This document shows, one piece after another, positions 1 through 43,837 of a DNA stretch of 64,000 nt. A program made the translations under genes and the position numbers. The stretch lies in the IMG/VR virus record IMGVR_UViG_3300021431_000082, positions 8,047-72,046 of that record; one strand, 5' to 3'. Positions within the stretch are counted from its first letter, which is position 1, and every line of letters starts with the position of its first letter. Origin of the DNA: a virus (taxonomy: Duplodnaviria > Heunggongvirae > Uroviricota > Caudoviricetes). The notes beneath the pieces were generated by a model. The model was not told where the DNA came from, ran no database searches, and worked only from the letters and a program-made list of their open reading frames with translations.

Positions 1-1385
1 ATTCGACCACGAAAGCTTTAACCACAGCTTCATTTATGCCATTTGGGGCCATTCTATTTTACAACAGTACGTATGCGGTTAATGCAAATGCAGTGATTCC
101 AAATGGTAGGCTGTACGATAGTTTGCTTATTGATCTTAGATATTCATTTAATATCGGAACAACTTTAACGGCTAACAAAGCTGTGTATATAGTTGCTGTT
201 CCACAGAGCGATGGCAAAGCAAAACTTCACGCCACAACCCCGATTTCTCAGACGTTGCCAACGACAGCCGATGGTAATTATTATATCTACCTTGGTATAG
301 CGTACAGCACCTATCAGGTAACGCTACCACGTAACTTCCATCCGGTGTTTATGTATGCGAACAGCGCTGTCAGAGAAGTAAGTCAATATGCTCCATATGC
401 CGGTGATTCAGCGACTGTATCTGGTCATACTGTTGCCAAGGATGTTCCAAGTGATGCTCTCTTCACTGATCACACCTATACAGCCGCAACTGCCGCTCCT
501 GGCGAAATCGCAACTACAGGTGCTAAAGGCTCATCTTCAAATTATGCCAGACAAGATCATACTCATGCGATCAGTCTTGCAACCGGAGATAGTAACGGAC
601 AGGTAAAGATTGCCGGTGAGAATGTCGATGTCAAAGGACTTGGAGCGCTTGCATACAAAGCCAGTCTCAGTAAGTCTGACGTTGGTCTTGGAAATGTGGA
701 TAACAAATCTTCCGCAACGATACGAGGCGAGATTACATCATAGAATGTGACTACCGCACTTGGATATACCCCAGTGAATAAGACTGGAGACACCATGAGC
801 GGCGATCTCGCTCTTAGTGCAGGAAGTGTTACTGCTAATGCCGGGTCTATCGTTTCAGGTGTGAGCACAAGAACAAGTGAGTCACAGGTCCATGCTATTA
901 GTAAATCTGGTGATATCTACCTGTATTCAACCGGTAACTCAAGTGGTAACGGGGCAAGGGGTCTTTATGTACCGGCTCATGGAACCGGCGGCGCTAAGAA
1001 TATTATCGCAGTTGACACAAACAACAACGTCACATTCTCTGGTTCTCTAAGTGGTGCCGCCTCATCCAATGTCTTAAAGTCCGGTGATACGATGTCTGGT
1101 CAGCTTACCCTTAAACCCGATTCAGGCGAAGGTGGTCAGATATGTCTTGATGCTTCAACGGCACAAACAACTCAGGGTGGTATTTATCTTGATCAGGTAA
1201 ACAGCTCATTCAGAATATTTGGTAAACCGTCCGCTGATGGAAGCACCTGTCAAGGATCAGGAACGATTCTCACATACTATCCATATAACTCAGGCAAGAT
1301 GACAATCGGAAGCGCAAGGGTCATGACATCTGCAATGTTCTCTCTCAGCGGAACGACCTTAACTATCACTATCCCAACTAACTAA
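1..1385 (+). CDS. tail fibre protein (5' end outside window; in-frame TAG at 741-743)
   Basis: ORF 36..743 stays open back to base 1 and continues in the same frame through a single TAG into ORF 747..1385. The protein is G/S/T-rich with repeated K-SGDTMSG-L motifs typical of phage tail fibres. Confidence 0.55.
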
Positions 1386-1393
1386 GGAGTAAA

Positions 1394-2026
1394 ATGGTAA
1401 ACATATACGGTTCAGGCGGTGGTGGTGTCTCATCTGAAGACATCACTGCTCGCCGAGCCGATGTTCTTGAGACAGTCTCAACTATAACATCAGATTCAAA
1501 TGATGAGATGGTCAAAGGAACATTGGCAAATATTGCTGCGGAAGAGTCATATAAAAGCGTAAGGACAGATTCTTCCAACCTTTATCTCGGCGTAACTTCA
1601 GGTGCTCATGTAACGAATACAGCCTCTGGTTATCCGGCGGTTTATATTCCGCTGTCAAAGCTTCGTGAAAAGATCGGAGTAACGGACGCTTCGAAGATCC
1701 TCTCCGGTGTAACTATTGCAGGTCTTACCGGGACTATGACAAACCAGGGATCAAAGAGTACGACTCTTGCCATCAATACATCTTACATAGTTCCAAAGGG
1801 TTATCACGATGGTACGGGCAAGGTTACTGCGGATAAAGATTACAGTACAAAGGCGGCATTCAGTTATACACCGAACAAGCCGACTTCAAATCATATGATC
1901 CAGGCCGCTGGCGTTTATATGTCCGGGGATATCACACTCAAAGGAGATGCTAATCTCGTGGCGTCAAACATTAAGAAGGGCGTAAAGATCTTTGGAATAA
2001 CTGGAACTTACGAATATGATTGGTGA
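1394..2026 (+). CDS. tail fibre / receptor-binding protein paralog A
   Basis: 210-aa ORF with an RBS. Its N-terminus (MVNI-GSGGG-V-S-D-TA) is shared with the next gene, and it is rich in G/T/S. Confidence 0.5.
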   Translation: MVNIYGSGGGGVSSEDITARRADVLETVSTITSDSNDEMVKGTLANIAAEESYKSVRTDSSNLYLGVTSGAHVTNTASGYPAVYIPLSKLREKIGVTDASKILSGVTIAGLTGTMTNQGSKSTTLAINTSYIVPKGYHDGTGKVTADKDYSTKAAFSYTPNKPTSNHMIQAAGVYMSGDITLKGDANLVASNIKKGVKIFGITGTYEYDW

Positions 2027-2032
2027 TTTAAA

Positions 2033-3193
2033 ATGGTAAATATAATTTGTTCAGGTGGTGGTAGTGTATTTTCTGATGACGTAACAGCTTCAAAAGCCCA
2101 AGTCGTTGAAGGATACTCCACAATCACTTCAGACTCAAATGATGAGATTGGTGAAGGTACGATGAAGGAAGTCGGAGCAAATGACCCATCAGTTTCAAAT
2201 GGAATTGCGAATTCAAACCTGTACCTTCGCATGACCAATGGAGCGCATCGGACTGCAAATGCGACCTCTGGATACCCGGAGGTTTCGATCCCGCTCGCTG
2301 ATCTCAGATCGACGATTGGATTTGCGGATACCGCCAATGTATTGGAGGGATATACGATTGCCGGCGCCGAAGGCACGATGCCCAATAAGGGTGCATGGAA
2401 TGGGAAAGTAGGACTTACAGGCTCTGTTACAATCCCGAAAGGATATCATAATGGGAGTGGAAAGGTCACAAGGTCTTTTCAGGTATATCCCGGTACTATT
2501 GCTACGCCGGCTGCAAATGATCAGGTAATTCTAACTTCAGGCAAGATTCTGACCGGCAATGTCAACTGTGCCGGTGATAAGAACTTAATTGCGGCCAACT
2601 TAAAACACGGCGTTTCTATCTTTGGAGTGACGGGAAGTTATGTGAGTCCCTATATCTACAATGGTGGAGACGCTACTGCTCTCTTTGGATCGAAGTCGTT
2701 TGGGTTCAAGATTAACGCCGGTGGTGATTATGGCGCAGCTTGGGGTGGATTAGTTTCCTATAATACGGCGAACATGACTGGGTCGTTCACTTTTAACAAT
2801 AACCTTAGTACATATAACTATGGAGCTTGTTATCTTGTTGCTAATAAAGCATTTGATATTAGCAATTACAATACATTAACATTATCATATACTGCTACAC
2901 CCGATGCAACATATCCAGGCTATTACTTTGTTCGTATCTATGTCGGGGTATCGGCGTCATGTGAGCGTCTAAGTTCAGATCCTTCAACACAGAGCTATTA
3001 TCGTCTTGCTGGACCTGAATATGACTCAAAGGTCAATGCAACAGCAAGTGGAACTGATACTTGTGTTCTTGATTTATCGAAAGCAAAAGCAAAAGGTAGT
3101 TTATACTACCCGTTTATTTATGCAACCATAAGCCATGATGCAAGTTATAATGCGACTGTTGGTGTAAAGGTTAACAGTCTTGTATTAAGTTGA
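2033..3193 (+). CDS. tail fibre / receptor-binding protein paralog B
   Basis: 386-aa ORF. The first ~120 aa are ~50% identical to 1394..2026 and the C-terminus is divergent. Confidence 0.5.
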   Translation: MVNIICSGGGSVFSDDVTASKAQVVEGYSTITSDSNDEIGEGTMKEVGANDPSVSNGIANSNLYLRMTNGAHRTANATSGYPEVSIPLADLRSTIGFADTANVLEGYTIAGAEGTMPNKGAWNGKVGLTGSVTIPKGYHNGSGKVTRSFQVYPGTIATPAANDQVILTSGKILTGNVNCAGDKNLIAANLKHGVSIFGVTGSYVSPYIYNGGDATALFGSKSFGFKINAGGDYGAAWGGLVSYNTANMTGSFTFNNNLSTYNYGACYLVANKAFDISNYNTLTLSYTATPDATYPGYYFVRIYVGVSASCERLSSDPSTQSYYRLAGPEYDSKVNATASGTDTCVLDLSKAKAKGSLYYPFIYATISHDASYNATVGVKVNSLVLS

Positions 3194-3253
3194 GGTAACT
3201 AATATACATTTTCATAATAAATCCAATATACAGCGAGCGCGATAAGCTGTATG

Positions 3254-3285
3254 TTGTGTTTATATATAAAAATCAATTGTATAAT
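3254..3285 (+). promoter_or_regulatory. sigma70-like promoter candidate (extended -10 TGTATAAT)
   Basis: TTGTGT ... TGTATAAT lies in the AT-rich gap upstream of the 3405 gene. Confidence 0.3.
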
Positions 3286-3404
3286 ATCGTCGCGAAATAT
3301 TATGCATGAGATTTTTATAACCTGTTGTTACTCAATCAAACAAAAAAACGAGGTAAAATTTAATTATGAATGAGAACGTCGATTATGGAATGTAGGGTAG
3401 CACT

Positions 3405-3929
3405 ATGTGGTTTCTTGCTCTGATGCTTCTGCTGTTTGGTGGCGGATTCGGTGGTGGATTTGGCGGTGGCCGTCCGATGCCTAATTTTGCAACACAGGAA
3501 CAGGTGCAGGAAGGTTTCAATAATCAGTCTGTGCAGAACCAGCTTCAGTAGATTGCTCTCAGCTCTGCAAACAACAACTATCAGACTGCTCTCCTGCTGA
3601 ATCAGCAAACCAATCAGCTTGAACAGCAGAACAATACAAACCTGATCAATGCTATCCAGGGATTCAATTCCGTGAATCAGGCAATTCAGAATCAGACAAA
3701 TGTTCTCCAGAGTCAGCTTCAGCAACTCGGCGCTCAGATGAACGAGTGCTGCTGCTCTATCAAGACTCAGATGCTTCAGGATAAGTATGAGGCTACTCAG
3801 TCTCAGCTTAATGCCGCTCGTAACGAAATCAGCAACTACAATCAGTCCCAGTATCTGCTCGGTCAGATGGGACGCTATGTGGCGTGGGCTGGTTCAGGCT
3901 CTCAGGCGGCTGCTGGCGCTAACGGCTAA
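3405..3929 (+). CDS. Gln/Asn-rich secreted or membrane-anchored protein with in-frame TAG (3549-3551)
   Basis: ATG at 3405 is followed by a hydrophobic N-terminus and G-rich linker, then Q/N-rich repeats. The frame runs through TAG (NQLQ-TAG-IALSS) into ORF 3672..3929. An alternative start at 3366 would add a second in-frame TAG at 3393. Confidence 0.45.
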
Positions 3930-3944
3930 TTTTGTTTTACCACT

Positions 3945-3970
3945 GGGGCTCCTTCGGGAGCCCCTTTTAT
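3945..3970 (+). terminator. rho-independent terminator
   Basis: GGGGCTCC-TTCG-GGAGCCCC hairpin followed by TTTT. Confidence 0.6.
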
Positions 3971-3988
3971 TAATGGAGAATATGGAGA

Positions 3989-4663
3989 ATGCCGATAAAG
4001 TTTGGCAATACGACTATAGATAAAATTATATATAACAACACCGATCTTGATAAAGTATATTTCAAGAATGGTAACAACGCTGCTGTACTTGTATTTTTTA
4101 CACCATACGCTTATAACGGATAGTCTTTTCGAGGGGATTTTAGTAGCGGTATCATCTCTGGTCCACAAGTTAAGAAAGGGGTTAACTCCGCGATATATGG
4201 GCCAATTGATCAAGCTCCCAGAGGCGCTACTTATACGAGCGGAGCTATATCTGATTCCTATACATAGACCACATCGGATGGGTATGGCCTAGGTGGCTTT
4301 GCAACAGTTGGACAAATTGATCTTACAAATATTTAGTCAATCAGGGTCAATCAAACATTCCACTGGTGGGTCAGAAATATTACTACAAGTAGTCCAGACT
4401 GGGTGTATGTGTAGCTGAATAGAGTGTATGCTTGCACTAAAAGCGGAAATGATTATGTAACACAGGCAGAGCTATATGGAACTTAGAGCGGTGTAGTCCC
4501 AGGCTACACTGGAAACAATGGTTATAATACGACCACTGGTGCTTGGACATTTAATTGCAGTTCTCTCACTGGTAATTATTATTTATTTTTTCAGATTGAA
4601 CATTCGAGTGAAGCGGTTGGAATAAACGCATAGACTACAATTAACAGTATAATACTATCATGA
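3989..4663 (+). CDS. tail/structural protein with six in-frame TAG codons
   Basis: ATG at 3989 to TGA at 4661. Six in-frame TAGs (4121, 4265, 4334, 4412, 4484, 4631) are the only stops in a 225-codon frame. The translation is a G/Y/T/N-rich tail-fibre-like protein. Confidence 0.55.
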
Positions 4664-4941
4664 AAAACAAAAAGAAAATCCAATTTACAAAGATAATCAT
4701 AACGATGGTGTTGATCTGGGCGATGCTTATGGTTAGCGCCACTTATGTTTTATAGGCATTTCATCGTGATCCGCCTGAGACTCTAAGCATCCGCATCGTT
4801 GAACTTATCATTGCGGCAATCATTACCTACTGTCTCAAGGCATTTTTTGAAACCAAAGAACAAGAAAAAAATCGATTGAAGGAAAAGGAACTAGATCGTG
4901 ACTATACAGATAGTGAGTCTTGTGAAGAACCTCGTGGATAA
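4660..4941 (+). CDS. holin-like small membrane protein with in-frame TAG (4753-4755)
   Basis: ATGA start/stop overlap with the previous gene. Two predicted TM helices (IIITMVLIWAMLMV, IVELIIAAIITYCL) precede a charged C-terminal tail. The frame is open through a single TAG. Confidence 0.4.
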
Positions 4942-4954
4942 AAGGAGAATGAAT

Positions 4955-5431
4955 ATGGAATTTAAACTGTCCCCGCCGTGGGCAATCTATTATCGTAAAA
5001 TCAATGCGCTGTTTGGAGAGGACCCTGAGATCAGGATTGTATACGATGAGGATGCTCCTGAGATCAAGCTGTATGTGGATAGCGTGGACAAGGCTGATGC
5101 CATGGCTCAGCTGCTCCCGGTCGAGAAGGAGTTCGGTAATGTCAAGCTGAAGATCACTGTCATTCCGCCGAACAAACTTGAAGCTGATAAGATCTCCGTA
5201 TTTGAGAAGATGTTCAAGGGTAACCCTGTGGTCTCCTTCATCACCGGCATTCAGGATATCTTTGCAACTCCGCTCCACTATATCGTTTTTAAGAATAAGG
5301 TTGTCCAGTATCACAACGATGATCTCAGCGATTTCTATGGCAACTGCTCCACGCTCTATCAGGATATTGCAAAAGATGTCTTCGGAAAACAAGAAAACAT
5401 TTACTTCTGCACCGACAGAGCAGACTGAATA
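4955..5431 (+). CDS. hypothetical protein
   Basis: AAAGGAG RBS sits 8 nt before ATG 4955. Same frame as ORF 4898..5428, ending in TGA. Confidence 0.5.
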
Positions 5432-5532
5432 TGCAAGTCTGATGCAGAGCCTCACTGAAGAAGTGAACGATATCAAGAAGTATGGCGAACCAAAAGGTAA
5501 GCGAATCACTCTTGAAATTATGAGGTCTTTAA

Positions 5533-6675
5533 ATGACAAAGTTAGAAATGATTGACGCCATCATCGCCTACATGAAAGCTGATGACGGCTATCTGGAGAA
5601 AGCCACGGCGAATTCGAAGTATCTCTACACGAAGCTTCAGAACGCCGGCTATAACAACTACACCAAGTACTGGGATATCATCTATAAGGCGACCGGTCTC
5701 AACTATCAGGGTGGAGCATGGTGCATGGGGAGCATCATGGCTATCATGATTGAGACCCTCGGCGTACATAATGCCCAGACTCTGATGTATCAGAAGGCTG
5801 CAATTAATTGTCAGCTTACTTATGATATTTTCAGAGAACATGGTCAAGTCTATAGCACTCCTGAAGTTGGTGACCTGATCGTCTTCTGGAATGGCAAGCG
5901 CTTCCATCATGTCGAGTATGTCATCAGGATCAGCGGCGATACCTTCTGGACCTGGGGCGGGAATACCTCAAGTGATACAAGTATCGTTGTTGATAATGGT
6001 GGTGCAGCTCGATATGGAAAGCAGTATTCCATTAAAGCATGTAAAGCTAACAAACATAAGTTTCTTAGACCTGACTATGATGCTATCGCAACAGAGAGCT
6101 CAAACACAAAGCTGTGCAGTGGAACGCTCGAAGTCGTAGCCGCACTGAACTGTAGAGCCTCTGCTGTGACCGGTGCGGTGAAGACTACGTACTCTGCCGG
6201 CACCAAGGTCGAAGTCAGCCGCTATACATTCCAGGGTAATGCCTACTGGTTTAAGACTCAGGATGGATGGGTTAGCGGCAACTACTTAAAAGGATGGGTC
6301 AAGGTAGATACGACCGATCCTCACAACCAATGGTGGTACATGACCGGAAGTAAGAAGTCTGAGACCGCCTATGGTATTAATCAGATTCTTGAAATCAATG
6401 GAGCCACCTATCTGTTCAAGCCGAATGGATACGCACTCCAGGATGACTGGTACAAGGAGAACGACACCTGGTACTACGCATATGACAACTGCCAGATCAT
6501 CAGGAGTAACTGGCTCGAATACAAAGATCACTCCTACTATTTCGACTCAACTGGAAAAATGGTGACCGATGCTTTCGTGAAAGCTAAGAACGCCGAAACT
6601 TACTATTACTTAGACAAGGATGGCGTTTGGGATGGTAAAGCCTACCCAGAGCCGGAAGGAAGGATTGTGAAATAA
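5533..6675 (+). CDS. cell wall hydrolase: CHAP peptidase + SH3b + choline-binding-type cell-wall-binding repeats
   Basis: Cys (GGAWCMG) and His (GDLIVFWNGKRFHHVEY) CHAP signature, an SH3b-like middle region, and C-terminal W/Y-rich repeats (YYFDSTGKMVTD, YYYLDKDGVW). Confidence 0.6.
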   Translation: MTKLEMIDAIIAYMKADDGYLEKATANSKYLYTKLQNAGYNNYTKYWDIIYKATGLNYQGGAWCMGSIMAIMIETLGVHNAQTLMYQKAAINCQLTYDIFREHGQVYSTPEVGDLIVFWNGKRFHHVEYVIRISGDTFWTWGGNTSSDTSIVVDNGGAARYGKQYSIKACKANKHKFLRPDYDAIATESSNTKLCSGTLEVVAALNCRASAVTGAVKTTYSAGTKVEVSRYTFQGNAYWFKTQDGWVSGNYLKGWVKVDTTDPHNQWWYMTGSKKSETAYGINQILEINGATYLFKPNGYALQDDWYKENDTWYYAYDNCQIIRSNWLEYKDHSYYFDSTGKMVTDAFVKAKNAETYYYLDKDGVWDGKAYPEPEGRIVK

Positions 6676-7235
6676 TGAACGAGTTGAATCAGTTTTTTCA
6701 GATTAACATGAGGCAGTTCCTGTTGGAATTGTTTATTATCGCCGTTGTATTTTTGGGCTTCGATGACATCTACAACAAACTTAAGACCCGTCTTGGGATT
6801 GTAACAAAGGCGGATCTGGAAAAACAAAAGGAGCATGAAGCCATCAAGCGTCATAGCGAAGAGCTGGATGAGATACGTGCAGGTCTGGATGCGGTCAGGG
6901 AGGAATCTGAAAGAGCTGATTCCGACTTCAAATCCTAGTTCAAGGCCCTTAACGATAAGATCAATGTGCTTTCTAGTATGCTTGTGGAAATGCAGAGAAA
7001 GTCTGATGAATCTGAGAGACACAAACTTCATGACAGGATCGGTCAATCATATCGGTATTATCATGAACGCTTCGTTAACAACGCACCAGGGGGAGTATGG
7101 ACTGCGATGGAGAAGGAAGCTTTTGATGGACTGATTCTGGACTATGAAAACCACGGCGGTAAGAACTCTTTCGTGCATACAGTGTGCCAACCTGAGAGTG
7201 CGCAGTGGACTATAAAGGAGAATTACAATGGTTAA
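6675..7235 (+). CDS. membrane protein with in-frame TAG (6939-6941)
   Basis: ORFs 6675..6938 and 6966..7235 share one frame and are separated only by TAG. There is an N-terminal TM helix followed by a coiled-coil region. Confidence 0.45.
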
Positions 7236-7587
7236 TTGGTTAATTGAAAACTGGGCGTTAATTGTCGTGCTTATCTGCATGGTGTTTCTGACTGTGAATT
7301 CAGTGAAAAACTTTTCAGATAAACCGACCGATGAGCAGATCGAGCAGATCAGGAAGTGGCTGCTGATTGCGGTGACGGAATGTGAGGCTCAGCTCGGAAG
7401 TAAGACCGGCAGACTGAAGCTGTCTATGTGCTATGACATGTTTGTAAAGGCACTGCCATCTCTCGCCGCTATCGTCCCGTTTGAGCTGTTCTCTGACCTT
7501 GTAGACGAGGTTTTAGATGAGATGGAGATAATCCTGAAGAACCAGCCTGAAGTCCTTCAGAAGGTCGCACAGGGGGCTCAGGATTGA
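7228..7587 (+). CDS. small membrane protein
   Basis: 119-aa ORF with an N-terminal TM helix (WALIVVLICMVFLTV). Confidence 0.4.
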   Translation: MVNWLIENWALIVVLICMVFLTVNSVKNFSDKPTDEQIEQIRKWLLIAVTECEAQLGSKTGRLKLSMCYDMFVKALPSLAAIVPFELFSDLVDEVLDEMEIILKNQPEVLQKVAQGAQD

Positions 7588-7787
7588 TCGAAGAATGGTA
7601 GAACAAAATTAATGGTAGTCGTGTCTGGGCTGAGGAAGCAATGCTTGGTCCAGACGATGGCTACAATGTTTGGCTAGTTAATGGCGCTGAACCTATGTGG
7701 TACTCGAAGTACCTATTTGAAGAATGCTATAGGAAGGTAAGAAATGATAGCACAACCACTTCAGTACAAACCTATATCACTTAATGA
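7584..7787 (+). CDS. possible small protein with in-frame TAG (7599-7601)
   Basis: AGGGGG RBS then TTG start. The frame has only one TAG before TAA at 7785, and the translation looks protein-like (INGSRVWAEEAMLGPDDGYNVWLVNGAEPMWYSKY). Confidence 0.2.
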
Positions 7788-8001
7788 TGGAGGTAAGGAC
7801 ATGGATTTCATTGAGTTCCTCGTAAAGACTATTAACGAAGAGGCGAACGATGCCGGTAAGTATATGCAATGGGCTGGAGCTTGCAGTGACAAGACATGCA
7901 AGGACACCCTAAATGAAATTGGAAATCAGGAACTAATGCATCAAAAGAAACTGATTGACCTGCTTGCTAATCTTGCGAAGAAGGGAGTTGATAAGGAGTG
8001 A
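7744..8001 (+). CDS. hypothetical protein
   Basis: ORF from the track. The stronger RBS (GGAGGTAAGGAC) precedes the internal ATG at 7801. Confidence 0.4.
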   Translation: MIAQPLQYKPISLNDGGKDMDFIEFLVKTINEEANDAGKYMQWAGACSDKTCKDTLNEIGNQELMHQKKLIDLLANLAKKGVDKE

Positions 8002-8360
8002 ATGAATTTTATCCTTATGGCGGAATAACCGCTCCTACCTTTCAGCAGCCACAGTCTCAACAGCCACAACCGATACAGAGTCGAATCCTCAATGTAAACG
8101 GAAGAGTAGGTGCAGAGAAGATCAATCTCGCTCCCGAATCTTCTATCTTTTTGCTCGACTCTAAAGACCCGGTAATATGGTTAGTCACGACTGACAGCGC
8201 TGCTACAAAAACAATCACGAAGATTAACGCAACTATTGAAGAGGAAAATACACAGGAAGCTACGGCCCCTGTAGTCACTGATAAACTTGAAGAAAAACTG
8301 GATGACGTAATCAAGCGGATTACCGATTTGGAAAAACGCTTTGATTCATGGGAGGCATAA
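7998..8360 (+). CDS. hypothetical protein
   Basis: 120-aa ORF with a Q/P-rich N-terminus. Its start overlaps the previous stop (GTGA). Confidence 0.4.
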   Translation: MNEFYPYGGITAPTFQQPQSQQPQPIQSRILNVNGRVGAEKINLAPESSIFLLDSKDPVIWLVTTDSAATKTITKINATIEEENTQEATAPVVTDKLEEKLDDVIKRITDLEKRFDSWEA

Positions 8361-8614
8361 TGAGTCTACAAGAACTTGCACTTCAAAACAGTCCACAGAT
8401 GAACGGGATTAATAATCTAATCAGTACAATAAAGGCGGCACAGAATCCTGCCGCTATGATCCAACAGTTAGTAATGAATAACCAGCAGGCAAAACAAGCC
8501 AAAGAGATCGCTGATCAATATGGTGGTTGGGAGCAGGCGGCTAGGGCCGTAGCTCAGCAAAAAGGGATTGACATTAATCTTGTTCTTAAACAACTTTCTG
8601 GAGAATATAAATGA
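8348..8614 (+). CDS. hypothetical protein
   Basis: 88-aa ORF, translationally coupled to its neighbours. Confidence 0.4.
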   Translation: MGGIMSLQELALQNSPQMNGINNLISTIKAAQNPAAMIQQLVMNNQQAKQAKEIADQYGGWEQAARAVAQQKGIDINLVLKQLSGEYK

Positions 8615-10098
8615 TCGACACGACAAACGAGTTAGTAAGAGACATCAACGAATCTGTTACTGGCCAGACCTCACATGCAAAGACAGTCAACGAACTTGTC
8701 AGGGAAATTCGTGATGCTGTCGATGGAGTTGTGAACGAAGACCAGATCAGAGAGATTGTTGCCGGCATCATTGGCAGCGCCCCTGAAGCACTGGATACTC
8801 TTGGTGAGATCGCTGATGCTCTCTCTGAAATTTATACGAAGGCTGAGGTAGATACTCTCCTGTCTGGTGTTGATACCGCCGTTAAGCGCGCCGAAGCTAC
8901 CGTCAGCTCACTACAGACCCAATTCGATCAGGCTATGACCGCTCTGACTGAAGACTCAGAAGTACAGAACGCAAGAGTTGGGTCTGATAATGTACAATAC
9001 AGCACTCTGAAGGCTCGCCTCGATGCTGAGAATACTGAGTTAAAGAAACATTTTGAGGAGAGCAGTGCGTATCTTGGATTTGATGCCACAAATGCAATCA
9101 CTTCTATAGCATCTGGCTACTACACAAATGATGGAGCATTTAGCAATAATGGAAATTATTCCCATACTAATGACATTGATGTAGTAGGCGTAAAGAGTGT
9201 ATATATATCTGGAACATTACACACATATACGTTACAGCAGTTTCCTGCTATCGGCGTATTCTTGGGCGCTAATGACCAGTTAATTGCAACGCTTTACAGC
9301 TTGGTGCAACCGAATCAGGCGCCTTGGTTAGTGCGTGTACCTGACGGGGCAACCAAATTAATCATAAACACTGAATATAGGAAAAACGACTATCCAACAT
9401 CCTTGCCTGATGGGGTACTTTGCCTTAAGGTGCAAAAAGAGATTGTGTACTACAACGATCTCAGTGCCGGGAAGCGTATTAAAATTCTTGCCGGGGTTAT
9501 CAGGAATACCGGGACAGGGTGGGCGTTTATTGACGATGCGAACCATAATCCGCTTAATATGTCCGCAGTATCAGTTGATGACAGTGGGCACATCGTTCTG
9601 GATTATGGGTTTACCGCCAAAAAAGTTTTGTCTCTCGTTGGTGCGCCTGATGAAACTTTCGCTTCAAAATACAGAATCGGTGGTTCTGTCGGTCTGTCTC
9701 AAACACTGTTTAATGTTTCAACATTGCATAAGACTATCGGGGGGATGGTATCATATAACGGATCAAGTTGGAATATTAACTACACATCATTTTCCGGGGC
9801 ATCTTTTGACACGGCTACAGGGGCTTTGACGCTCACGCATGAATCTGTTGCAGAGTATCCCACAAGGGAAAAGTTCAATGTGTCCGCAACTGGCAGACGA
9901 TGCAATGTGCAGTTGGGAGAAATGTCAGATACTTCTCTGATTTTATACTTTTTAAATCCTGATGGTACAGTAAAGAAAACACCAGATACTAATATGAGGG
10001 CATATATCACGCGAGATTTGAATTCCATTACAATAAACGCCGACAGTATCATATCCGCAAGCGGTAACTTCTGGCTGTTTGGCGTGATGGAAGTTTAA
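8611..10098 (+). CDS. tail fibre / receptor-binding protein
   Basis: 495-aa ORF with an N-terminal coiled-coil region and a C-terminal beta-rich G/T/S/N domain. It is the last gene of the plus-strand structural block. Confidence 0.45.
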   Translation: MIDTTNELVRDINESVTGQTSHAKTVNELVREIRDAVDGVVNEDQIREIVAGIIGSAPEALDTLGEIADALSEIYTKAEVDTLLSGVDTAVKRAEATVSSLQTQFDQAMTALTEDSEVQNARVGSDNVQYSTLKARLDAENTELKKHFEESSAYLGFDATNAITSIASGYYTNDGAFSNNGNYSHTNDIDVVGVKSVYISGTLHTYTLQQFPAIGVFLGANDQLIATLYSLVQPNQAPWLVRVPDGATKLIINTEYRKNDYPTSLPDGVLCLKVQKEIVYYNDLSAGKRIKILAGVIRNTGTGWAFIDDANHNPLNMSAVSVDDSGHIVLDYGFTAKKVLSLVGAPDETFASKYRIGGSVGLSQTLFNVSTLHKTIGGMVSYNGSSWNINYTSFSGASFDTATGALTLTHESVAEYPTREKFNVSATGRRCNVQLGEMSDTSLILYFLNPDGTVKKTPDTNMRAYITRDLNSITINADSIISASGNFWLFGVMEV

Positions 10099-10195
10099 CT
10101 GACCCGAAAGGACACTTTAAATTAGCCACCGACATAAATGTCGGGGCCATCTGAACATGTACAAAATAGACCTACACTTCTAAGCCATGTGTAAA

Positions 10196-10228
10196 CCCGG
10201 ATGGAGAAATCTGTCCGGGTATTTTTTT
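10196..10228 (+). terminator. rho-independent terminator (end of plus-strand late operon)
   Basis: CCCGGATGG...TGTCCGGG hairpin then TATTTTTTT. A second hairpin for the convergent minus-strand gene follows at 10238-10262. Confidence 0.55.
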
Positions 10229-10259
10229 ACGCAATAAAAAAGAGACCGGTCGCCCGATC

Positions 10260-11243
10260 TCAAGCATATTTCCTGTATGAGTTTTTGACATGCTCATTTT
10301 CTATGAACACATATCGCATTGTCGTGTCGATCTTATCATGGCCAAGGATGGCAGCAACTTCCTGGATTGACATCCCATGATTTATCAAATTGGTCGCAAG
10401 CGTTCTTCTGAATCTATGAGGATGCACATTATCTACGCCGGCCTTCCTCGCTATGGTGTTTAGTCTGAATCTAACTCCGCCTGGTGTCAATCGCTCAGAA
10501 CCTTTACCAATGAACAGAGCTTCACTGTTATCGAGTCGTTCGGCGAAGTATCTCTTCAGCAACATAGCAGTCACATTATTAATATATACGACTCTCTCCT
10601 TCTTACCCTTACCGTGTACCTTACATTCAAGGTTTTGGAAATCAATATCATCTCTGTTTAGTTTGCACACCTCTCCTATTCTGCATCCGGTAGAGAGTAA
10701 GAATGATATGATAGTTCTATCTCTAACGCACTTGCAGCTTTCTTTAAGGCGCTCGATGTCAACGTCATTAAATGGTTTGCGAACTATTTTAGCGCATTTA
10801 ATCGTATTGATATTCGCGCATGGATTCGCATCTATCAGTCCTTCTTTTTGTAACCAACCGAAGAACGAACTGAAAACACTTCTCACACCCTCAATGGTGC
10901 TGTCAGATATTCCTCGCTCACGCATTCCCATTAAATAGCTACGGAGATGATAGATTGTGATCTTGCGTATAGGCACCTTCACGACTTCTAACATACGTCT
11001 GATAACGTATGCATATCTTTCTGTCGTCTTCGGTGATCTTCCTTCGATCTGCTTCGCCTCGATGAATGCAGATATAAGATCTTCTGAGTCGATAGAGTAT
11101 CCGTCATTGGAAGCTTCTATATTATATTGTGCTATTTGATCCAAAAGCATACTCATTACTGCATTGGTATTATTCACAGTTAATATGTTTCCGAGTTGTT
11201 TTTCGATATCACGCAACATCATCTGTTTCGCAGAGATAGACAT
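10260..11243 (-). CDS. tyrosine recombinase / integrase (XerC/XerD-like)
   Basis: Core-binding and catalytic motifs: ...TGCRIGEV..., HRFRRTLAT, LGHDKIDTTMRYV. Confidence 0.8.
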   Translation of the reverse strand: MSISAKQMMLRDIEKQLGNILTVNNTNAVMSMLLDQIAQYNIEASNDGYSIDSEDLISAFIEAKQIEGRSPKTTERYAYVIRRMLEVVKVPIRKITIYHLRSYLMGMRERGISDSTIEGVRSVFSSFFGWLQKEGLIDANPCANINTIKCAKIVRKPFNDVDIERLKESCKCVRDRTIISFLLSTGCRIGEVCKLNRDDIDFQNLECKVHGKGKKERVVYINNVTAMLLKRYFAERLDNSEALFIGKGSERLTPGGVRFRLNTIARKAGVDNVHPHRFRRTLATNLINHGMSIQEVAAILGHDKIDTTMRYVFIENEHVKNSYRKYA

Positions 11244-11321
11244 GCTACACGCTCCTATTCTATGAGATTAAAGTCCTATTCGCCATGGCTATCCTCCTTT
11301 CTTCTTTTCTTGTTAGAAATA

Positions 11322-11486
11322 TTTTTACTCAAGAATCTTTGCCGGGTGATCATCACACCTGGATTCATATTCACCATTAGTGAATACATGAACATGAGTT
11401 GCTTTCTTGTAATATCCCATTCTCATACATGCCGCACACAGCGGATATTCCTTTAAGAACTTTTTCTTCTTAATCTTCTCGAACAT
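11322..11486 (-). CDS. small Cys/His protein
   Basis: 54-codon ORF not in the track. GGAGGAAAT RBS precedes ATG, and the sequence contains CAAC...H...DDH. Confidence 0.3.
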
Positions 11487-11714
11487 ATTTCCTCCTATTC
11501 TCTACTCAATAGAAAATTTCAATCAAAGACTGACGTCAAATATTCTTAATCTTTTCTTACGTTTCTTACAGAGTGTTTAAAAAGTGGCGTATTTACACTC
11601 CTCCTTATCCTTAATCGTAGAAAAAATCGTAGACGGCGATAAATCGTGAAAATAAAAAAGTCGTCAACCGCTCATTTACTGGGCTTGACGACATTAGATA
11701 GAGCAGATGACGGG

Positions 11715-11752
11715 AATCGAACGTCAGGAAACCCCTCGTTTTTGGCTTAAAT
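11715..11752 (-). other. tRNA 3'-end-like segment (attP core candidate)
   Basis: T-arm-like GACGTTCGATTCCCGTC overlaps the 3' end of the integrase gene. Short repeats AATCGTAG/AATCGTGA lie just downstream at 11617-11655. Confidence 0.25.
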
Positions 11753-13112
11753 CAATGACTTTCGAGGGTTGTTCCATCGTAGTTGCTTCATCTTCTACGA
11801 TTTGGAACTCCGGTATCCGACTCAGAATGTCTGCTTTTGTATCGACACTCTTCCTGTTCCGGTGGTAGTGCTTCTCCGTGACAAGAATATTTGAGTGCCC
11901 CATCTGCGAGGTTACAAAGTTTTTGTCGACCCCGGCATCCAGTAATATCGAGCCATAAGTTTTGCGGATTTTGTGTGGAGATTTGCGAACGATGTGTAGT
12001 TCGTCGCATAGATTTCTCAGGCGGGTCCTAAACGTGTTGGTTGTCAGTCTGTGCCGCCCATTCATGAAAATGAATTCTTTGTCCGGGTTCAGGCTGTTGA
12101 CGGTGTCATAGAGCCAGCTGAATCCCCTGGGCAGGATGATCTTCCTGATGCCGGCGAATGTCTTCGGGGCATCCTTGATGTTGTAGTGGTACTTGCCGTC
12201 ATCGCCAAACTCTCTCGTCTCTGTCCGGTGAATCTCAATCATCCCATCCTTGAAGTCATCATGTTTTAATACCACTAGTTCCCCGATCCTCATACCGGTA
12301 ACAAACATCAGCATGATCCCAAGGTTTGTCTGGTCCTGGTGTTCAGCGAGGTAGAGCATGATGCGCTCATACTCAGCCTCGGAGAACACTTCCTCTTCGT
12401 CACTTCTTATGATGTGCTTGAAGTCATGGTCTGAAGAGTCCAGTTCGGAAATCACCAGGTCGATATTAAAGTTGATGAAACCTCTGCGCTTTGCACGTTT
12501 CAGCATCCCGCGCATGATGGTCTTAAGGTTCGAGAAAGCTTTTGATGTGAGGTTGTGCTTTGACGGCTGCTCCTCAAGGAAGTCCAGGATAGATTCGGGA
12601 GTGAGCTCGTTGATCTGCTTCTTACCAAAAGACTCAGCGAAGTAGCGCCGGTATTCCTGATGGTATCTAAGATACGTGGCAGCTGATATCTTCTTTAAGT
12701 CAAGCTTCCTTCTTGCCCACTCCTCGAATATCTCGTCTACCAGTGGATACTCTTCAAGGCTCCGGTAGTATTCCACGACAACATCTTCAACTTCTTTCTT
12801 CGTCTTCCTGTCTACAGTCCTCCTGCCCTTTACCGGGTCTGGAAGATAGGTACGCCATCTTCCCTTCGTCTGCCAGAACTTGGACTTGTGTTTCTCAAGT
12901 AGCCTTTTTCTCTCTGCTGTTTTCATCTGGTCTTGTAAATACGCCAGATCTATTATACCAGAGTCTATGGCTTTTTGTAAAATTTCCTGTGTTGTCATTG
13001 TTAGCGGTGAAGTAAGATGCCCAGAATACATGGGATCGTAATACAAAACATCGTTGCTCTCATTCGTTCCCCAAGCGACACAGCCAGGTTGTCTTCGCCT
13101 ATCTCTTCGCAA
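11724..13112 (-). CDS. tyrosine integrase (phage integrase family)
   Basis: TGMRIGELVVLK, HKIRKTYGS, MGHSNILVTEKHYH catalytic region. The true start may be an internal Met near 13000. Confidence 0.75.
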   Translation of the reverse strand: MRRDRRRQPGCVAWGTNESNDVLYYDPMYSGHLTSPLTMTTQEILQKAIDSGIIDLAYLQDQMKTAERKRLLEKHKSKFWQTKGRWRTYLPDPVKGRRTVDRKTKKEVEDVVVEYYRSLEEYPLVDEIFEEWARRKLDLKKISAATYLRYHQEYRRYFAESFGKKQINELTPESILDFLEEQPSKHNLTSKAFSNLKTIMRGMLKRAKRRGFINFNIDLVISELDSSDHDFKHIIRSDEEEVFSEAEYERIMLYLAEHQDQTNLGIMLMFVTGMRIGELVVLKHDDFKDGMIEIHRTETREFGDDGKYHYNIKDAPKTFAGIRKIILPRGFSWLYDTVNSLNPDKEFIFMNGRHRLTTNTFRTRLRNLCDELHIVRKSPHKIRKTYGSILLDAGVDKNFVTSQMGHSNILVTEKHYHRNRKSVDTKADILSRIPEFQIVEDEATTMEQPSKVIDLSQKRGVS

Positions 13113-18924: not shown

Positions 18925-19048
18925 GGTCTTCTCCGTTAATTCTGCTCATCGACTGTACTTTTATCTTCGAAAAAGTACTCCATTTCATCTTGGCTCCAAA
19001 TTTCAATCGGGCCATAGTCCTTTGTTTCTATAACGTCTTCAAGCCTTG

Positions 19049-19300
19049 TCATGGCATGGGTCTCCTTCTATAGGGCAACTTCTGCAATCCACGAAGGTAT
19101 GCGTCAGCTTCTCCTGGGCGGTGATTCCAGATTTCGATTGCTTCCTCTGGTGTGGCACGACAACATGTGGAGGAATTTATAAGGCATTTCATGTTGTCAC
19201 ACTGTACATAGTAGGGGAAATCTTGCCCAATTGGTATTTGTTTCAAAACCGCCTTGCCACCGCAAAATGGACAGGGTTTAAGTTTCTCCATGCTTGTCAT
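19049..19300 (-). CDS. Lar-family restriction alleviation-like zinc-finger protein
   Basis: CPFCGG...CDNMKC...CC motif characteristic of Lar/Ral-type small proteins. Confidence 0.4.
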   Translation of the reverse strand: MTSMEKLKPCPFCGGKAVLKQIPIGQDFPYYVQCDNMKCLINSSTCCRATPEEAIEIWNHRPGEADAYLRGLQKLPYRRRPMP

Positions 19301-19563
19301 TTCCTTTCGTAGGGAGATTGTGTCATCATTACCACATTTACACTGTTAACCAAATAGGTATTCCCATCAATTACAATTTGCAGTTGTTCTCCTTCATAGT
19401 CTTGCCATGACTGCACCCGCCCTTTCAATACGGAACCATCAGGCATTTTTATAACTGCGTACTCGTAGGAGTATGTAAAATCCAAAATTTGCTTGTTACA
19501 GCCGCTAATCATCAGGGCAAATAACACCGCAATTGCTACCGTCACAACCTTATTTAGTTTCAT
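19297..19563 (-). CDS. lipoprotein
   Basis: Signal peptide MKLNKVVTVAIAVLFALMISGC with a lipobox Cys. The start is taken at the internal Met of ORF 19297..19662. Confidence 0.45.
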   Translation of the reverse strand: MKLNKVVTVAIAVLFALMISGCNKQILDFTYSYEYAVIKMPDGSVLKGRVQSWQDYEGEQLQIVIDGNTYLVNSVNVVMMTQSPYERK

Positions 19564-19873
19564 GTCCTTCTCCTTCCGGGTGATACTTAGCCGGGAGCGG
19601 CATCCACGCATCTGGATAGTCTTCTTCATCAACCTCAAAATCTTCTGTGTACCATCGGCCATCTATAATCCATGCAATATATGGACTATCACCGAAAAGA
19701 TATACGAATACTTCCTCGCCATCTTTAGGCTTTAGTTCCTTACTCAGAATCCACTGCTGTGCGGGTGGCAGCTGCTTGATCTGCTCTGCATACCAACCCG
19801 GGTAGTGTGCTTCTGGTGGTTGTCCTAATATCGCATTAATCGCCATCTGTCTATAGATCGTATCGTTACTCAT
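19550..19873 (-). CDS. DUF551-like protein
   Basis: C-terminal DAWMPLPAKYHPEGEGH. Confidence 0.45.
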   Translation of the reverse strand: MSNDTIYRQMAINAILGQPPEAHYPGWYAEQIKQLPPAQQWILSKELKPKDGEEVFVYLFGDSPYIAWIIDGRWYTEDFEVDEEDYPDAWMPLPAKYHPEGEGHETK

Positions 19874-24401: not shown

Positions 24402-24404
24402 TTT

Positions 24405-24710
24405 CTACACCTCCATACTTGCACCACACCACGGACAGTGCGGGTATAACAAGTAGACTTCTTCAATTTCATCGTATGGGGCTTCTTTCCCACAGCATGA
24501 ACAGATACGCCTGTATTCCTCTCCGTCTTCTGTCACTGCTTTCCACTGTCCATGCACCGCAGGGACAGCATCCACGGTATCCTCGTTATCCACGATAGCA
24601 TCAATGGCATCATTCCACCCTTGACGGTAGAACGCACCGTCACCGAATTTGTTACACAGAATTTCCGGGAACTTACGCTCTGGTAACGCATCAGCGTCAA
24701 TCATTCTCAT
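24405..24710 (-). CDS. IDADAL-family zinc-ribbon protein (terminates with TAG)
   Basis: MRMIDADAL...VHGQWK...CSCCG...CPWCG. It is the only gene seen ending in TAG, and the next paralog follows in frame. Confidence 0.45.
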   Translation of the reverse strand: MRMIDADALPERKFPEILCNKFGDGAFYRQGWNDAIDAIVDNEDTVDAVPAVHGQWKAVTEDGEEYRRICSCCGKEAPYDEIEEVYLLYPHCPWCGASMEV

Positions 24711-28075: not shown

Positions 28076-28396
28076 CTAAACTTGGTGTCCAATATTTTGG
28101 TCACCATTAACCTTGCTGATCAACTGGAATATACCGCTTATCTTTTCTGGAACCCCGTCCTTATATATCTCCACCTCAGACTCACCAATGTCTATGTCAA
28201 AGTCGTACGGTGGGAACGAGATCAGAATTGTGCCAGATGCCGTAGGAAATATCTCTGCATTTTTAGGGCACCAAATCAACATGAGCAGCGTTTTAAGTAT
28301 CACAAACCTCGGAATAGGATCGGCCTGGTATCCATTCCAGTTCTTTTTTAATCCTGCGATCTTCCAAAGCTTCTTTAGATTTGTCAGGTTTATCAT
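28076..28396 (-). CDS. hypothetical protein
   Basis: 106-aa ORF. Confidence 0.35.
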   Translation of the reverse strand: MINLTNLKKLWKIAGLKKNWNGYQADPIPRFVILKTLLMLIWCPKNAEIFPTASGTILISFPPYDFDIDIGESEVEIYKDGVPEKISGIFQLISKVNGDQNIGHQV

Positions 28397-42643: not shown

Positions 42644-42733
42644 TCGGGACGGCGAGATTTGAACTCGCATCACAAGTAGGTGACGAACCCCTTGTTGTTT
42701 ACCGTCAAAGCTTTACTTTTAAGCTACGTCCCG
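42644..42733 (-). tRNA. aberrant tRNA-like gene (about 90 nt; expanded anticodon region)
   Basis: Acceptor CGGGACG/CGTCCCG-A is identical to the 42114 tRNA. The D-arm is GCTT..AAGC and the T-arm GCGAGTTCAAATCTCGC. The stem TGACG..CGTCA encloses a 17-nt loop. Confidence 0.3.
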
Positions 42734-43750: not shown

Positions 43751-43837
43751 CGTGGAGTGAGGGCTTCGAACCCCCGAATCGGTCGCCCGATTATCAGATT
43801 TAGAGTCTGACGCAATCAACCGCTCTGCCAACTCCAC
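43751..43837 (-). tRNA. amber suppressor tRNA (anticodon CTA), Ser-type type II architecture
   Basis: GTGGAGT-TG-GCAGAGCGGTTGATTGC-G-TCAGA-CTCTAAA-TCTGA, long variable arm AATCGGGCGACCGATT, T-arm GGGGGTTCGAAGCCCTC-ACTCCAC, discriminator G. The D-arm closely resembles the adjacent tRNA-Ser. Confidence 0.6.

Follow-up and report, generated by a model that had tools for sequence, protein, structure and literature searches.

Late-gene amber codons in a large phage are probably read as serine by a phage-encoded type II tRNA(CUA)

Results and Discussion

Late genes with in-frame TAG codons

The window, by which we mean the whole 64-kb stretch of DNA analysed here, carries a late block with tail-fibre and lysis genes on its plus strand (1-10.1 kb) and an early/replication block of 54 kb on its minus strand (10.2-64 kb). 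Our analysis centres on a plus-strand gene of 224 codons (3989..4663; ATG 3989 to TGA 4661-4663), in which an earlier note, made from the letters of the sequence, had counted six TAGs as the sole internal stops. The count is exact: TAG occupies codons 45, 93, 116, 142, 166 and 215 (nucleotides 4121, 4265, 4334, 4412, 4484 and 4631), and neither TAA nor TGA occurs inside the frame. Directly 5' of the gene lies a terminator-like hairpin, GC-rich and followed by a T-tract (3945..3964, plus strand), which is kept in the related locus L081. None of 20,000 shuffles of positions 3989-4663 was free of TAA and TGA (mean 11.1). The open frame by itself is no proof of coding, because non-coding shadow frames of the window are also long and free of TAA and TGA while containing several TAGs (e.g. 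19034-19828, 264 codons, five TAGs). Frame length was hence dropped as an argument, and the proof is comparative. L081 carries a homolog that is 79% identical, with the same frame open; its codons at the six TAG sites are, in order, TCT, TAG, TCG, GAA, TCG and AAG, at least four of the six being sense codons. Differences between the two genes are concentrated at the third codon position (36/31/75 at positions 1/2/3); 59 of the codon changes are synonymous, 41 non-synonymous. To judge by these substitutions, the whole frame is under purifying selection. Identical or near-identical copies are found in three ENA assemblies and one JGI contig, and because the same six TAGs recur in all of them, they are not sequencing errors. 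Full-length homologs of the protein exist as well (P0125-P0127).

The product is a putative receptor-binding or tail-fibre-tip protein with a modular N-terminus and a predicted C-terminal beta-sandwich. Its N-terminal module of ~45 residues is common to otherwise different proteins; fold searches with the protein gave weak matches to beta-sandwich folds, carbohydrate-binding modules (CBMs) and phage tail proteins, which were left out as proof of function. A PDB sequence search with the fibre region gave nothing useful. The designation as a tail gene in the earlier note is plausible in view of the adjoining fibre genes, the shared N-terminal module and the predicted beta-sandwich, though weakly shown.

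Internal TAGs occur in five or six further plus-strand genes. The 3' part of a tail-fibre gene, whose 5' end lies beyond the window start (3..1385), has a TAG at 741-743 within the motif KSSATIRGEITS[TAG]NVTTALGYTPVN, which is conserved on both flanks in 32 homologs. A membrane-anchored Q/N-rich protein is encoded at 3366..3929 (TAG 3549-3551); a second TAG of this gene, at 3393, is in frame if translation starts at ATG 3366, not at ATG 3405. The match of the Q/N-rich protein to phrog_16490 (residues 4-144) spans TAG 3549, and P0004 is 46% identical to it over 136 aa across the same TAG, with Ala at that site. TAG 3549 is kept in a second related locus, L092; furthermore, both L092 and L091, the latter a strain >99% identical to the window, have a TAG opposite the TCT at 3528 of the window. 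The gene that follows the six-TAG gene (4660..4941) encodes a small protein with two transmembrane helices, holin-like by inference, and its TAG at 4753-4755 is kept in L081 and L092. The endolysin gene (5533..6675; CHAP-like N-terminus, choline-binding repeats) is TAG-free in the window; its L092 ortholog has a TAG opposite the TCG (Ser) at 5614. Overlapping the endolysin stop codon is a gene for a protein with an N-terminal transmembrane helix and a coiled coil (6675..7235; TAG 6936-6938); this TAG is kept in L092, where TAG also stands opposite CAG 6699 and GCG 6810 of the window. The weakest site, near the start of a small gene (7584..7784; TAG 7599-7601, codon 6), is GAA in the L092 homolog. 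A TAG at 4892 was taken as lying upstream of the true start. The five further TAG genes proposed earlier are thus largely as described, with TAGs present at 741, 3549, 4753 and 7599, while the one placed at 6939 is actually at 6936-6938. As also stated there, plus-strand genes never end in TAG: 15 of 15 terminate at TAA (8) or TGA (7). The late block holds 11-12 in-frame TAGs and no gene ending in TAG.

Read-through in the late block and standard decoding in the early block

When genes were re-called with a coding-potential gene caller, treating TAG as sense raised coding density in the late block from 85.4% under code 11 to 96.5% and median gene length from 119 to 186 aa. Taking TAA or TGA as sense gave no comparable gain there, and the early block gained nothing with TAG as sense. 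This test covered the 64-kb window, in which the late region is represented by its tail end alone; the criterion for recoding used by Borges et al. is a density rise of >5-10%. Naive ORF coverage under single-stop reassignment was dropped, since removal of any stop lengthens ORFs and the measure did not discriminate. Homolog alignments cross the TAGs, including those at 741 and 3549, and homologs that align to fragments only did not occur. These alignments, the encoded tRNA(CUA) and the TAG-only density gain of the late block bear out the earlier interpretation as a TAG-sense phage, and sequence comparison supports TAG as a sense codon in the late (tail-fibre, lysis) genes of a stop-codon-recoded phage.

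The two blocks differ clearly. In-frame TAGs account for 10 of 3,125 late codons vs at most 4 of 13,802 early codons (Fisher p = 2e-5); off frame, TAG has the same density (0.9%) in the two blocks. No convincing internal TAG was found in the minus-strand early/replication block, and the integrases, polymerase, helicase and other genes located there have none; several minus-strand ORFs have TAGs among their first 7 codons, which were taken as upstream of the true starts. One early gene ends at TAG 24405..24407 (minus strand; junction ggaggtgTAGaaaATG): the ORFs on either side of this codon are paralogs in tandem, from one family of ~105 aa, and both match phrog_22543 to its C-terminal end. A second early gene probably ends at TAG 28076..28078 (minus strand), where read-through would add 12 codons only. 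The TAG-sense code proposed in the earlier note therefore holds for the late genes but is not genome-wide, at least one early gene terminating at TAG.

A phage-encoded type II tRNA(CUA)

On the minus strand, at 43751..43837, lies a type II amber suppressor tRNA of 87 nt, which has the anticodon CUA and matches Rfam tRNA with 52 bits. It has 7/5 acceptor/T stems, a variable-arm stem of 6 bp (AATCGG/CCGATT), a G73 discriminator and the pair G3:C70; CCA is not encoded. The same tRNA array includes a phage tRNA-Ser(UGA) (43310..43397, minus strand), which is like the suppressor in D-arm sequence, variable-arm length and G73. Among the tRNAs compared, those for Ser all share G73 with the suppressor, those for Tyr and Leu have A73, and the variable stem of 6 bp contrasts with 3 bp in the Tyr tRNA. 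The window's own tRNA-Gln(UUG), of 73 nt, is unlike the 87-nt type II suppressor. Matches in annotated phages over suppressor positions 7-80 are tRNA-Ser. The 5' half (positions 1-41), on the other hand, shows 85% identity with a jumbo-phage tRNA, tRNA-Tyr(GUA), and the anticodon stem-loop also resembles that of E. coli tRNA-Tyr. Identity over the whole sequence (75% to phage tRNA-Ser, the best value, and 71% to phage tRNA-Tyr) does not separate the two. The exact pattern of the tRNA, with the anticodon left free, has no match in IMG/VR, and blastn of the suppressor against E. coli genomes gave none either. A tRNA(CUA) is encoded by ~40-50% of TAG-sense phages.

Serine as the most likely residue at late-gene TAGs

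The window and its two relatives L092 and L081 yield 21 pairs of a TAG and a sense codon in true frames, with the partner residues S8, A5, Q3, E2, K1, V1 and L1. Among the Ser partner codons are TCA, TCT, TCC and AGT, none of which can be turned into TAG by a single mutation. Log2 likelihood ratios, based on substitution frequencies from the same alignments as the TAG pairs, are +7.3 for Ser, -3.1 for Ala, -15.7 for Gln and -55 for Tyr. In this pairwise set Ser is ahead of Gln by ~23 bits and of Ala, a fairly close second, by ~10 bits. BLOSUM62 sums over 22 sites, i.e. the 21 pairs and the Ala of P0004, rank the residues in the same order (S 34, A 25, Q 10). Ser is found at 8 of 21 pairs, as compared with a self-conservation of 61% for ordinary Ser codons. 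In the six-TAG gene, codons 45 and 116 are each Ser in three of four homologs. At site 741, the residues are S15, E4, A4, G4, D2, K2, T1 and Q0 across the 32 homologs whose context is conserved, and among the closest contexts Ser accounts for 10 of 14. On these alignments, the amino acid at late-gene TAGs is most likely Ser, not Gln.

Gln was implied at these sites by the earlier references to translation table 15 and to a Q-rich context, and genetic code 15, as used by crAss-like and Lak phages, is one alternative. Gln is the sole TAG reassignment reported for phages, three TAGs pair with CAG, the TAG at 3549 is in a Q-rich stretch, and an ENA pipeline has already put Q at the TAGs in its translation of the six-TAG gene (P0001). 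The pairings and the tRNA nevertheless favour Ser. Gln at 3 of 21 pairs falls far short of the 75% self-conservation of ordinary Gln; all its partners are CAG, a single transition from TAG, and none is CAA; P0004 has Ala at 3549; and a type II suppressor with G73 differs from a Gln-type tRNA, which would be type I with a short variable loop. The method is able to detect Gln, because distant recoded loci submitted to the same analysis give a Q/E/K pattern. We consider code 15 improbable in this phage. About equally improbable is insertion of Ala, or of an ambiguous small residue (Ser or Ala). After Ser, Ala is the most frequent partner, being present in P0004 at 3549 in addition to the five pairs and at 4 of 32 sequences at site 741, and some engineered amber tRNAs do insert a mixture of Ala and Ser (Mukai et al., PMC5389517). 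However, Ala stands at 4 vs 15 for Ser at site 741, and Ala partners are expected under Ser decoding because Ser-to-Ala is the commonest Ser substitution. AlaRS needs a G3:U70 pair, according to the identity rule given in the same study, where Ser was inserted by a G73 amber variant only; the suppressor described here has G3:C70.

A supF-like origin from tRNA-Tyr, with GUA changed to CUA by one mutation and TAG read as Tyr, would fit the jumbo-phage similarity of the 5' half, and bacterial Tyr tRNAs are also type II. Against this, Tyr is absent from all 21 pairs and all 32 residues at site 741, its likelihood is the lowest of the four, and both the discriminator and the variable stem of the suppressor differ from those of tRNA-Tyr, so that we rate it as quite unlikely. 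The notion that TAGs are real stops, leaving pseudogene debris or separate short genes, gains something from the TAG-containing shadow frames that are likewise long and free of TAA and TGA; it is refuted, as far as sequence comparison goes, by purifying selection over the whole frame, full-length homologs with sense codons at TAG sites, motifs conserved on both sides of TAGs, recurrence of the same sequence in four other assemblies, an encoded suppressor and a density gain that is specific for TAG. Finally, pyrrolysine decoding owes its mention to the ARAGORN label 'tRNA-Pyl', given automatically to any CUA anticodon. The variable loop of tRNA-Pyl is very short, whereas the suppressor, a type II cloverleaf, has a long variable arm. 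The label was rejected on this architecture, the aligned residues are Ser and Ala rather than Lys-like, and no pyl genes are present among the annotated proteins of the 64-kb window; the probability of this alternative is negligible.

A model with two decoding regimes

Decoding of the late TAGs as Ser by the phage's own tRNA(CUA), within a genome that uses two decoding regimes, is the reading to which we assign a probability of roughly 0.8. The window is part of a large phage genome (>64 kb), of which the early/replication block on the minus strand is read correctly by the standard code, and the late-block TAGs on the plus strand would be decoded by tRNA(CUA) 43751-43837. SerRS does not read the anticodon. 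Since the tRNA combines a long variable arm with G73, both of them recognition features of serine tRNAs, it is therefore presumably charged with Ser by the host enzyme, making TAG = Ser. Termination by host RF1 is presumably still in competition at UAG; the full-length yield of a gene would therefore drop with each added TAG, roughly as a power of the per-site suppression efficiency with the TAG number as exponent. Under these assumptions, the six-TAG fibre-tip gene, the holin-like gene and lysis-associated genes could be expressed efficiently only after the suppressor has accumulated, so that late functions would be gated at the level of translation. This gating role is a conjecture, the suppressor lying on the early strand. 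Multi-site gating is testable: one gene would need six suppression events and the holin-like gene one, and the 3' context is biased to A, with A following the in-frame TAG at 16 of 26 sites vs 29% after ordinary Ser codons (p = 6e-4), in keeping with competition between suppression and termination. The proposed coupling of recoding to late-function timing is thereby brought within reach of experiment.

Relation to known recoding systems

Stop-codon recoding of late phage genes is already known; what is new here is the residue, most likely Ser. To our knowledge, no NCBI translation table corresponds to a code with UAG = Ser. Phages with code 15 (TAG = Gln) include crAss-like, Lak and other phages (bioRxiv 10.1101/2021.08.26.457843; Peters et al., PMC9523058; Cook et al., PMC11210395). 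As in those, TAG is found in late, structural and lysis genes while early and integrase genes are TAG-free, a phage tRNA(CUA) is encoded, TAA and TGA still act as stops, and the code is used block-wise in one genome. Borges et al. (bioRxiv 10.1101/2021.08.26.457843) report that such phages show TAG -> Gln and TGA -> Trp only, the current mechanistic idea being that phages exploit GlnRS and TrpRS specifically, and among the 180 phage suppressors that Kienbeck et al. assigned to Gln, Trp, Ile or Tyr there is none for Ser. Our phage departs from the code 15 phages in the inferred residue, Ser not Gln, and in having a type II G73 suppressor instead of a Gln-type tRNA. Functional parallels are E. 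coli supD, a tRNA-Ser with CUA, and T4 psu1+, a phage-encoded mutant tRNA-Ser, both of which insert Ser at UAG. In both, a tRNA-Ser body with CUA is accepted by the anticodon-blind SerRS; the present tRNA, with CUA, a long variable arm and G73, would act likewise, and it is phage-encoded as in T4. However, supD and psu1+ are laboratory mutants that rescue nonsense mutations, whereas here the suppressor appears to be native and needed for wild-type genes.

A standard-code block next to a recoded one has been described in the Mgcod preprint (bioRxiv 10.1101/2022.06.29.495998), and the present phage is similar in that TAG is a stop at 24405 and sense in 1-10100. The phages described there are crAss-like, with amber or opal reassignment; ours is of another lineage, with no megablast relative in INPHARED. 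The 8/4 allo-tRNAs of Mukai et al. (PMC5389517) are Ser-identity tRNAs of phages and rumen organisms, but their amber variants were engineered, while the present suppressor is a canonical 7/5 cloverleaf whose CUA anticodon is natural. That study does not report phage genes naturally recoded with TAG = Ser, and the literature searched contained no case of TAG = Ser. If true, UAG = Ser contradicts the published generalisation for phages. Code 15 pipelines would then mistranslate TAG-bearing tail-fibre, holin-like, structural and lysis proteins – P0001 being an example – with consequences for structure prediction and metaproteomic searches. A Ser suppressor would also be a simpler route to recoding, given a synthetase blind to the anticodon, and would widen the range of reassignments to look for.

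Spread and relatives

One strict pattern retrieved 12 other IMG/VR contigs with type II CUA suppressors. G73 is present in 11, and two of these suppressors are 85-86% identical to a bona fide tRNA-Ser(UGA). In the portal, terminase and structural genes of these contigs, the residues opposite TAGs are mostly S, A, T or N. We lean, by a small margin over even odds, towards UAG = Ser being a natural code variant, used in the late genes described here and probably in several unrelated lineages with a type II G73 tRNA(CUA).

An all-against-all tally of TAG partners from 80 endolysin-anchored IMG/VR loci was dominated by L, W and Q; it was rejected as an artefact, because this excess stems from single-mutation neighbours of TAG in conserved non-coding frames. 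Restricted to supported frames, the set contains five distant loci that are recoded, with the Q/E/K pattern mentioned above; none of them has homologs of the window's TAG genes. A concatenated query of four proteins was flooded by the Q-rich segment and had P0004 as its sole yield. Megablast of positions 1-12000 against INPHARED gave no match. A scan of genome contigs returned relatives of the endolysin only, at a distance (35-38% identity), from Ruminococcus, Lachnospiraceae, Erysipelotrichaceae and other MAGs. Record names and relatives suggest a Firmicutes host from the rumen or gut.

Amber codons in the late genes

The frame of the putative tail-fibre-tip gene runs from ATG 3989 to TGA 4661-4663 on the plus strand and holds, as the earlier note had counted, exactly six TAG codons (nt 4121, 4265, 4334, 4412, 4484 and 4631) and neither TAA nor TGA. 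None of 20,000 shuffles of this segment left the frame free of TAA and TGA. However, non-coding shadow frames opposite real genes, taken as a control, are likewise long, free of TAA and TGA, and carry several TAGs (e.g. 264 codons with five TAGs at 19034-19828). Hence, the open frame alone is no proof, and the case depends on the comparison with related sequences.

Among 5.8 billion proteins searched, two full-length relatives of 224 residues were found. One (P0001) is the product of the same gene from other samples, in which the pipeline translation puts Q at each TAG; its DNA (L082-L084) has the same six TAGs as the window. The other (P0002, encoded on L081) shares 79% identity and has the same terminal TGA; its codons at the six sites are TCT, TAG, TCG, GAA, TCG and AAG, and it has a TAG of its own opposite a CAG of the window. 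Differences between the two genes are distributed 36/31/75 over codon positions 1/2/3, and 59 codon changes are synonymous versus 41 non-synonymous, which indicates purifying selection along one continuous frame. An exhaustive HMMER search added three full-length homologs (45-34% identity). For the C-terminus, a beta-sandwich is predicted (pLDDT about 80) that weakly matches carbohydrate-binding modules as well as phage tail proteins, and the first ~45 residues occur in otherwise different proteins; this fits a modular receptor-binding protein but does not prove it.

The late block (1-10100, plus strand) comprises tail-fibre genes, small membrane proteins and an endolysin that combines a CHAP-like N-terminus with choline-binding repeats. 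Among the further interrupted plus-strand genes listed previously, the TAGs at 741, 3549, 4753 and 7599 are in frame, while the one placed at 6939 lies at 6936-6938; a candidate TAG at 3393 (plus strand) is in frame only with ATG 3366 as the start of its gene. Each of the 15 plus-strand genes has TAA or TGA as its stop, in agreement with the claim that none ends in TAG. Alignments cross the TAG positions, as the note had asked to check, not only in the full-length homologs of the six-TAG protein: for gene 3366-3929, both a PHROG match and the protein homolog P0004 (46% identity over 136 residues) extend across TAG 3549, and in fibre gene 3-1385 the motif KSSATIRGEITS[TAG]NVTTALGYTPVN is kept on both sides of TAG 741 in 32 homologs. 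Re-calling genes with TAG as sense, the check suggested earlier, raised the coding density of the late block from 85.4% to 96.5% and the median gene length from 119 to 186 aa with the one gene caller used; with the same caller, TGA or TAA as sense gave no comparable gain in 1-10100, and TAG as sense gave none in the rest of the window. Based on the homologs that span TAGs and on the purifying selection, read-through of TAG in late genes is almost certainly real.

The adjacent fibre genes 1394-2026 and 2033-3193 (plus strand) have their first ~145 residues in common. In L081 (1-148), a 2033-like gene directly precedes the six-TAG gene, and the 3366-3929 gene is absent between them; in L092, the late genes stand in another order than in the window. 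The fibre and lysis region is shuffled modularly.

The amino acid at TAG

L092 is a JGI contig from a diverged relative that covers the whole late module (endolysin 78% identical) and is richer in TAG than the window. Comparing the window with L092 and L081 in true coding frames only, we obtained 21 TAG/sense pairs, in which the partner of TAG is Ser (8), Ala (5), Gln (3), Glu (2), or Lys, Val and Leu (1 each). The Ser partners use TCG (three times), TCT (twice), TCA, TCC and AGT, so that five of the eight are two or three mutations away from TAG, whereas all three Gln partners are CAG, one transition away. Substitution frequencies were taken from these alignments, so that composition and divergence are accounted for; relative to background, the log2 likelihood ratios come to +7.3 for Ser, -3.1 for Ala, -15.7 for Gln, -20 for Thr and -55 for Tyr. 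BLOSUM62 sums over 22 sites (the 21 plus the Ala of P0004 at 3549) rank these residues likewise: S 34, A 25, Q 10.

Glutamine, the residue of code 15, is incompatible with these data: ordinary Gln codons are 75% conserved in the window/L092/L081 alignments, yet Gln stands opposite TAG at only 3 of 21 sites. Alanine is the second most frequent partner but is disfavoured by its lower likelihood and by the G3:C70 pair of the phage's suppressor tRNA. The alignments rule out tyrosine. In the 32 homologs that keep the context of site 741, the residues there are S15, E4, A4, G4, D2, K2, T1 and Q0, with Ser in 10 of the 14 closest contexts; at codons 45 and 116 of the six-TAG gene, three of four homologs have Ser at each. 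A strain more than 99% identical to the window (L091, AUXO012440419.1) has TAG opposite TCT 3528, a two-nucleotide difference, and so does L092; this points to an exchange of alleles or to TAG and Ser codons that replace each other freely. Applied to five distant recoded loci as a control, the same analysis returned the Q/E/K pattern expected for code 15. The IMG/VR loci L012, L015, L067, L069 and L078, which are TAG-recoded with a Q/E/K pattern, have only the endolysin N-terminal domain in common with the window.

The CUA suppressor, detected by ARAGORN (Rfam tRNA, 52 bits), lies within the tRNA array at 43751-43837 (minus strand). It has 87 nt, a canonical 7/5 acceptor/T architecture, a variable-arm stem of 6 bp, and G73. 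Its 5' half is 85% identical to tRNA-Tyr(GUA) of jumbo phages, and identity over the whole sequence (Ser 75%, Tyr 71%) does not separate the two. What does separate them is the discriminator, which is G in the suppressor and all Ser tRNAs compared and A in Tyr and Leu tRNAs, as well as the variable-arm stem, which has 3 bp in the Tyr tRNA compared. Matches in annotated phage genomes that span positions 7-80 are tRNA-Ser. Seryl-tRNA synthetase reads the long variable arm and G73 and ignores the anticodon. According to Mukai et al. (PMC5389517), only a G73 amber variant inserted Ser. We conclude, with a probability of about 0.8, that late-gene TAG is read as Ser by a Ser-type suppressor tRNA.

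An RNA ligase (38060-39094) and a polynucleotide-kinase-like gene (39929-40783), both on the minus strand, adjoin the tRNA array; the pair looks like tRNA repair and could shield phage tRNAs, including the suppressor, from host anticodon nucleases. The tRNA-like gene 44317-44389 (minus strand; Rfam 36 bits) takes a tRNA fold in ARAGORN only if the anticodon loop is enlarged and the anticodon has four bases (GGGT); it could decode quadruplets or suppress frameshifts, or be a degenerate tRNA. Another tRNA, at 42644-42733 (minus strand; Rfam 45 bits), escapes ARAGORN unless a 10-nt intron is permitted, and is then read as Pro GGG; recoded jumbo phages are reported to have tRNAs with introns (PMC13037316).

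Similar suppressors and published codes

Scanning IMG/VR for a strictly defined tRNA structure (conserved D-arm, CUA loop, long variable arm, T-loop), we found type II CUA tRNAs on 12 contigs (L173-L184), 11 of them with G73. Three adjoin a tRNA-Ser(UGA), and two are 85-86% identical to bona fide tRNA-Ser(UGA). On several of these contigs, the genes for portal, large terminase and virion structural proteins contain many in-frame TAGs. Between two diverged relatives among them, TAG stands opposite S/A/T/N at 10 of 16 sites and opposite Q/K/R at 4. To judge from these alignments, an independent lineage points the same way as the window, with weaker evidence, and the 12 contigs may represent a wider class of phages that read TAG as Ser.

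Amber suppressors that insert Ser have long been familiar as laboratory mutants (E. coli supD, T4 psu1+), and the chemistry is thus unsurprising. Already published are phage stop-codon recoding, its bias to late and lysis genes, integrase avoidance, phage CUA suppressors and block-wise code use. In such phages, Borges et al. (bioRxiv 10.1101/2021.08.26.457843) describe only TAG to Gln and TGA to Trp, in contrast to the Ser inferred here; Gln at TAG was confirmed by proteomics (Peters et al., PMC9523058), and the types that Kienbeck et al. assigned to 180 phage suppressors were Gln, Trp, Ile or Tyr. No report of natural TAG-to-Ser recoding emerged when 8 million open-access papers and preprints were searched by phrase and keyword. 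The novelty appears to be a native code of this kind in wild-type phage genes.

Context of TAG and the early block

In the window and L092 together, 16 of 26 in-frame TAGs are followed by A; for ordinary Ser codons, the figure is 29% (p = 6e-4). A 3' purine, above all A, favours amber suppression over RF1 termination. The bias therefore suggests competition between the suppressor and a host RF1 that is still active. In that case, full-length yield would scale roughly as per-site efficiency raised to the number of TAGs, and suppressor level would matter most to the six-TAG gene; likewise dependent on it would be the holin-like gene 4660-4941, the endolysin-coupled gene 6675-7235 and the fibre genes. 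That the suppressor gates late functions is a tentative proposal, to which we give somewhat less than even odds; it is patterned on what Borges et al. proposed for code-15 phages.

The minus-strand block (10260-64000) includes genes for a PolIII-alpha-like DNA polymerase, NrdD, DnaB, primase, exonucleases, the RNA ligase with its PNK-like protein and several tyrosine recombinases, besides the tRNA array. No convincing internal TAG was found in this block. In-frame TAG occurs 10 times in 3,125 late codons and no more than 4 times in the 13,802 codons of the early block (Fisher p = 2e-5), while off frame the two blocks have the same TAG density, 0.9%. At 24405-24407 (minus strand; ggaggtgTAGaaaATG), a TAG separates two ORFs that both match one ~105-residue family (phrog_22543) up to its C-terminal end; they are therefore tandem paralogs, and this TAG is a genuine terminator. 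The alternative code claimed in the earlier note holds for the late genes, with Ser as the probable residue, while TAG is a stop in at least one early gene, a block-wise use already published for recoded phages. At the junction (24401-24410), the downstream gene is in frame with the TAG-terminated one, and read-through with an active suppressor would fuse the two paralogs.

The window has three to four tyrosine-recombinase/integrase genes (10260-11243, 11724-13112, 60754-61704 and, weakly, 59839-60699), all on the minus strand and without internal TAG. A second endolysin-like gene (26295-26993, minus strand; phrog_7, E = 1e-42) stands well away from the lysis cassette, on the early strand. Auxiliary genes on the same strand encode a cysteine-desulfurase-like class-V aminotransferase (58400-59485), an Fe-S oxidoreductase (51012-51911), the anaerobic ribonucleotide reductase NrdD (33814-35748) and a GIY-YIG nuclease (62314-63228).
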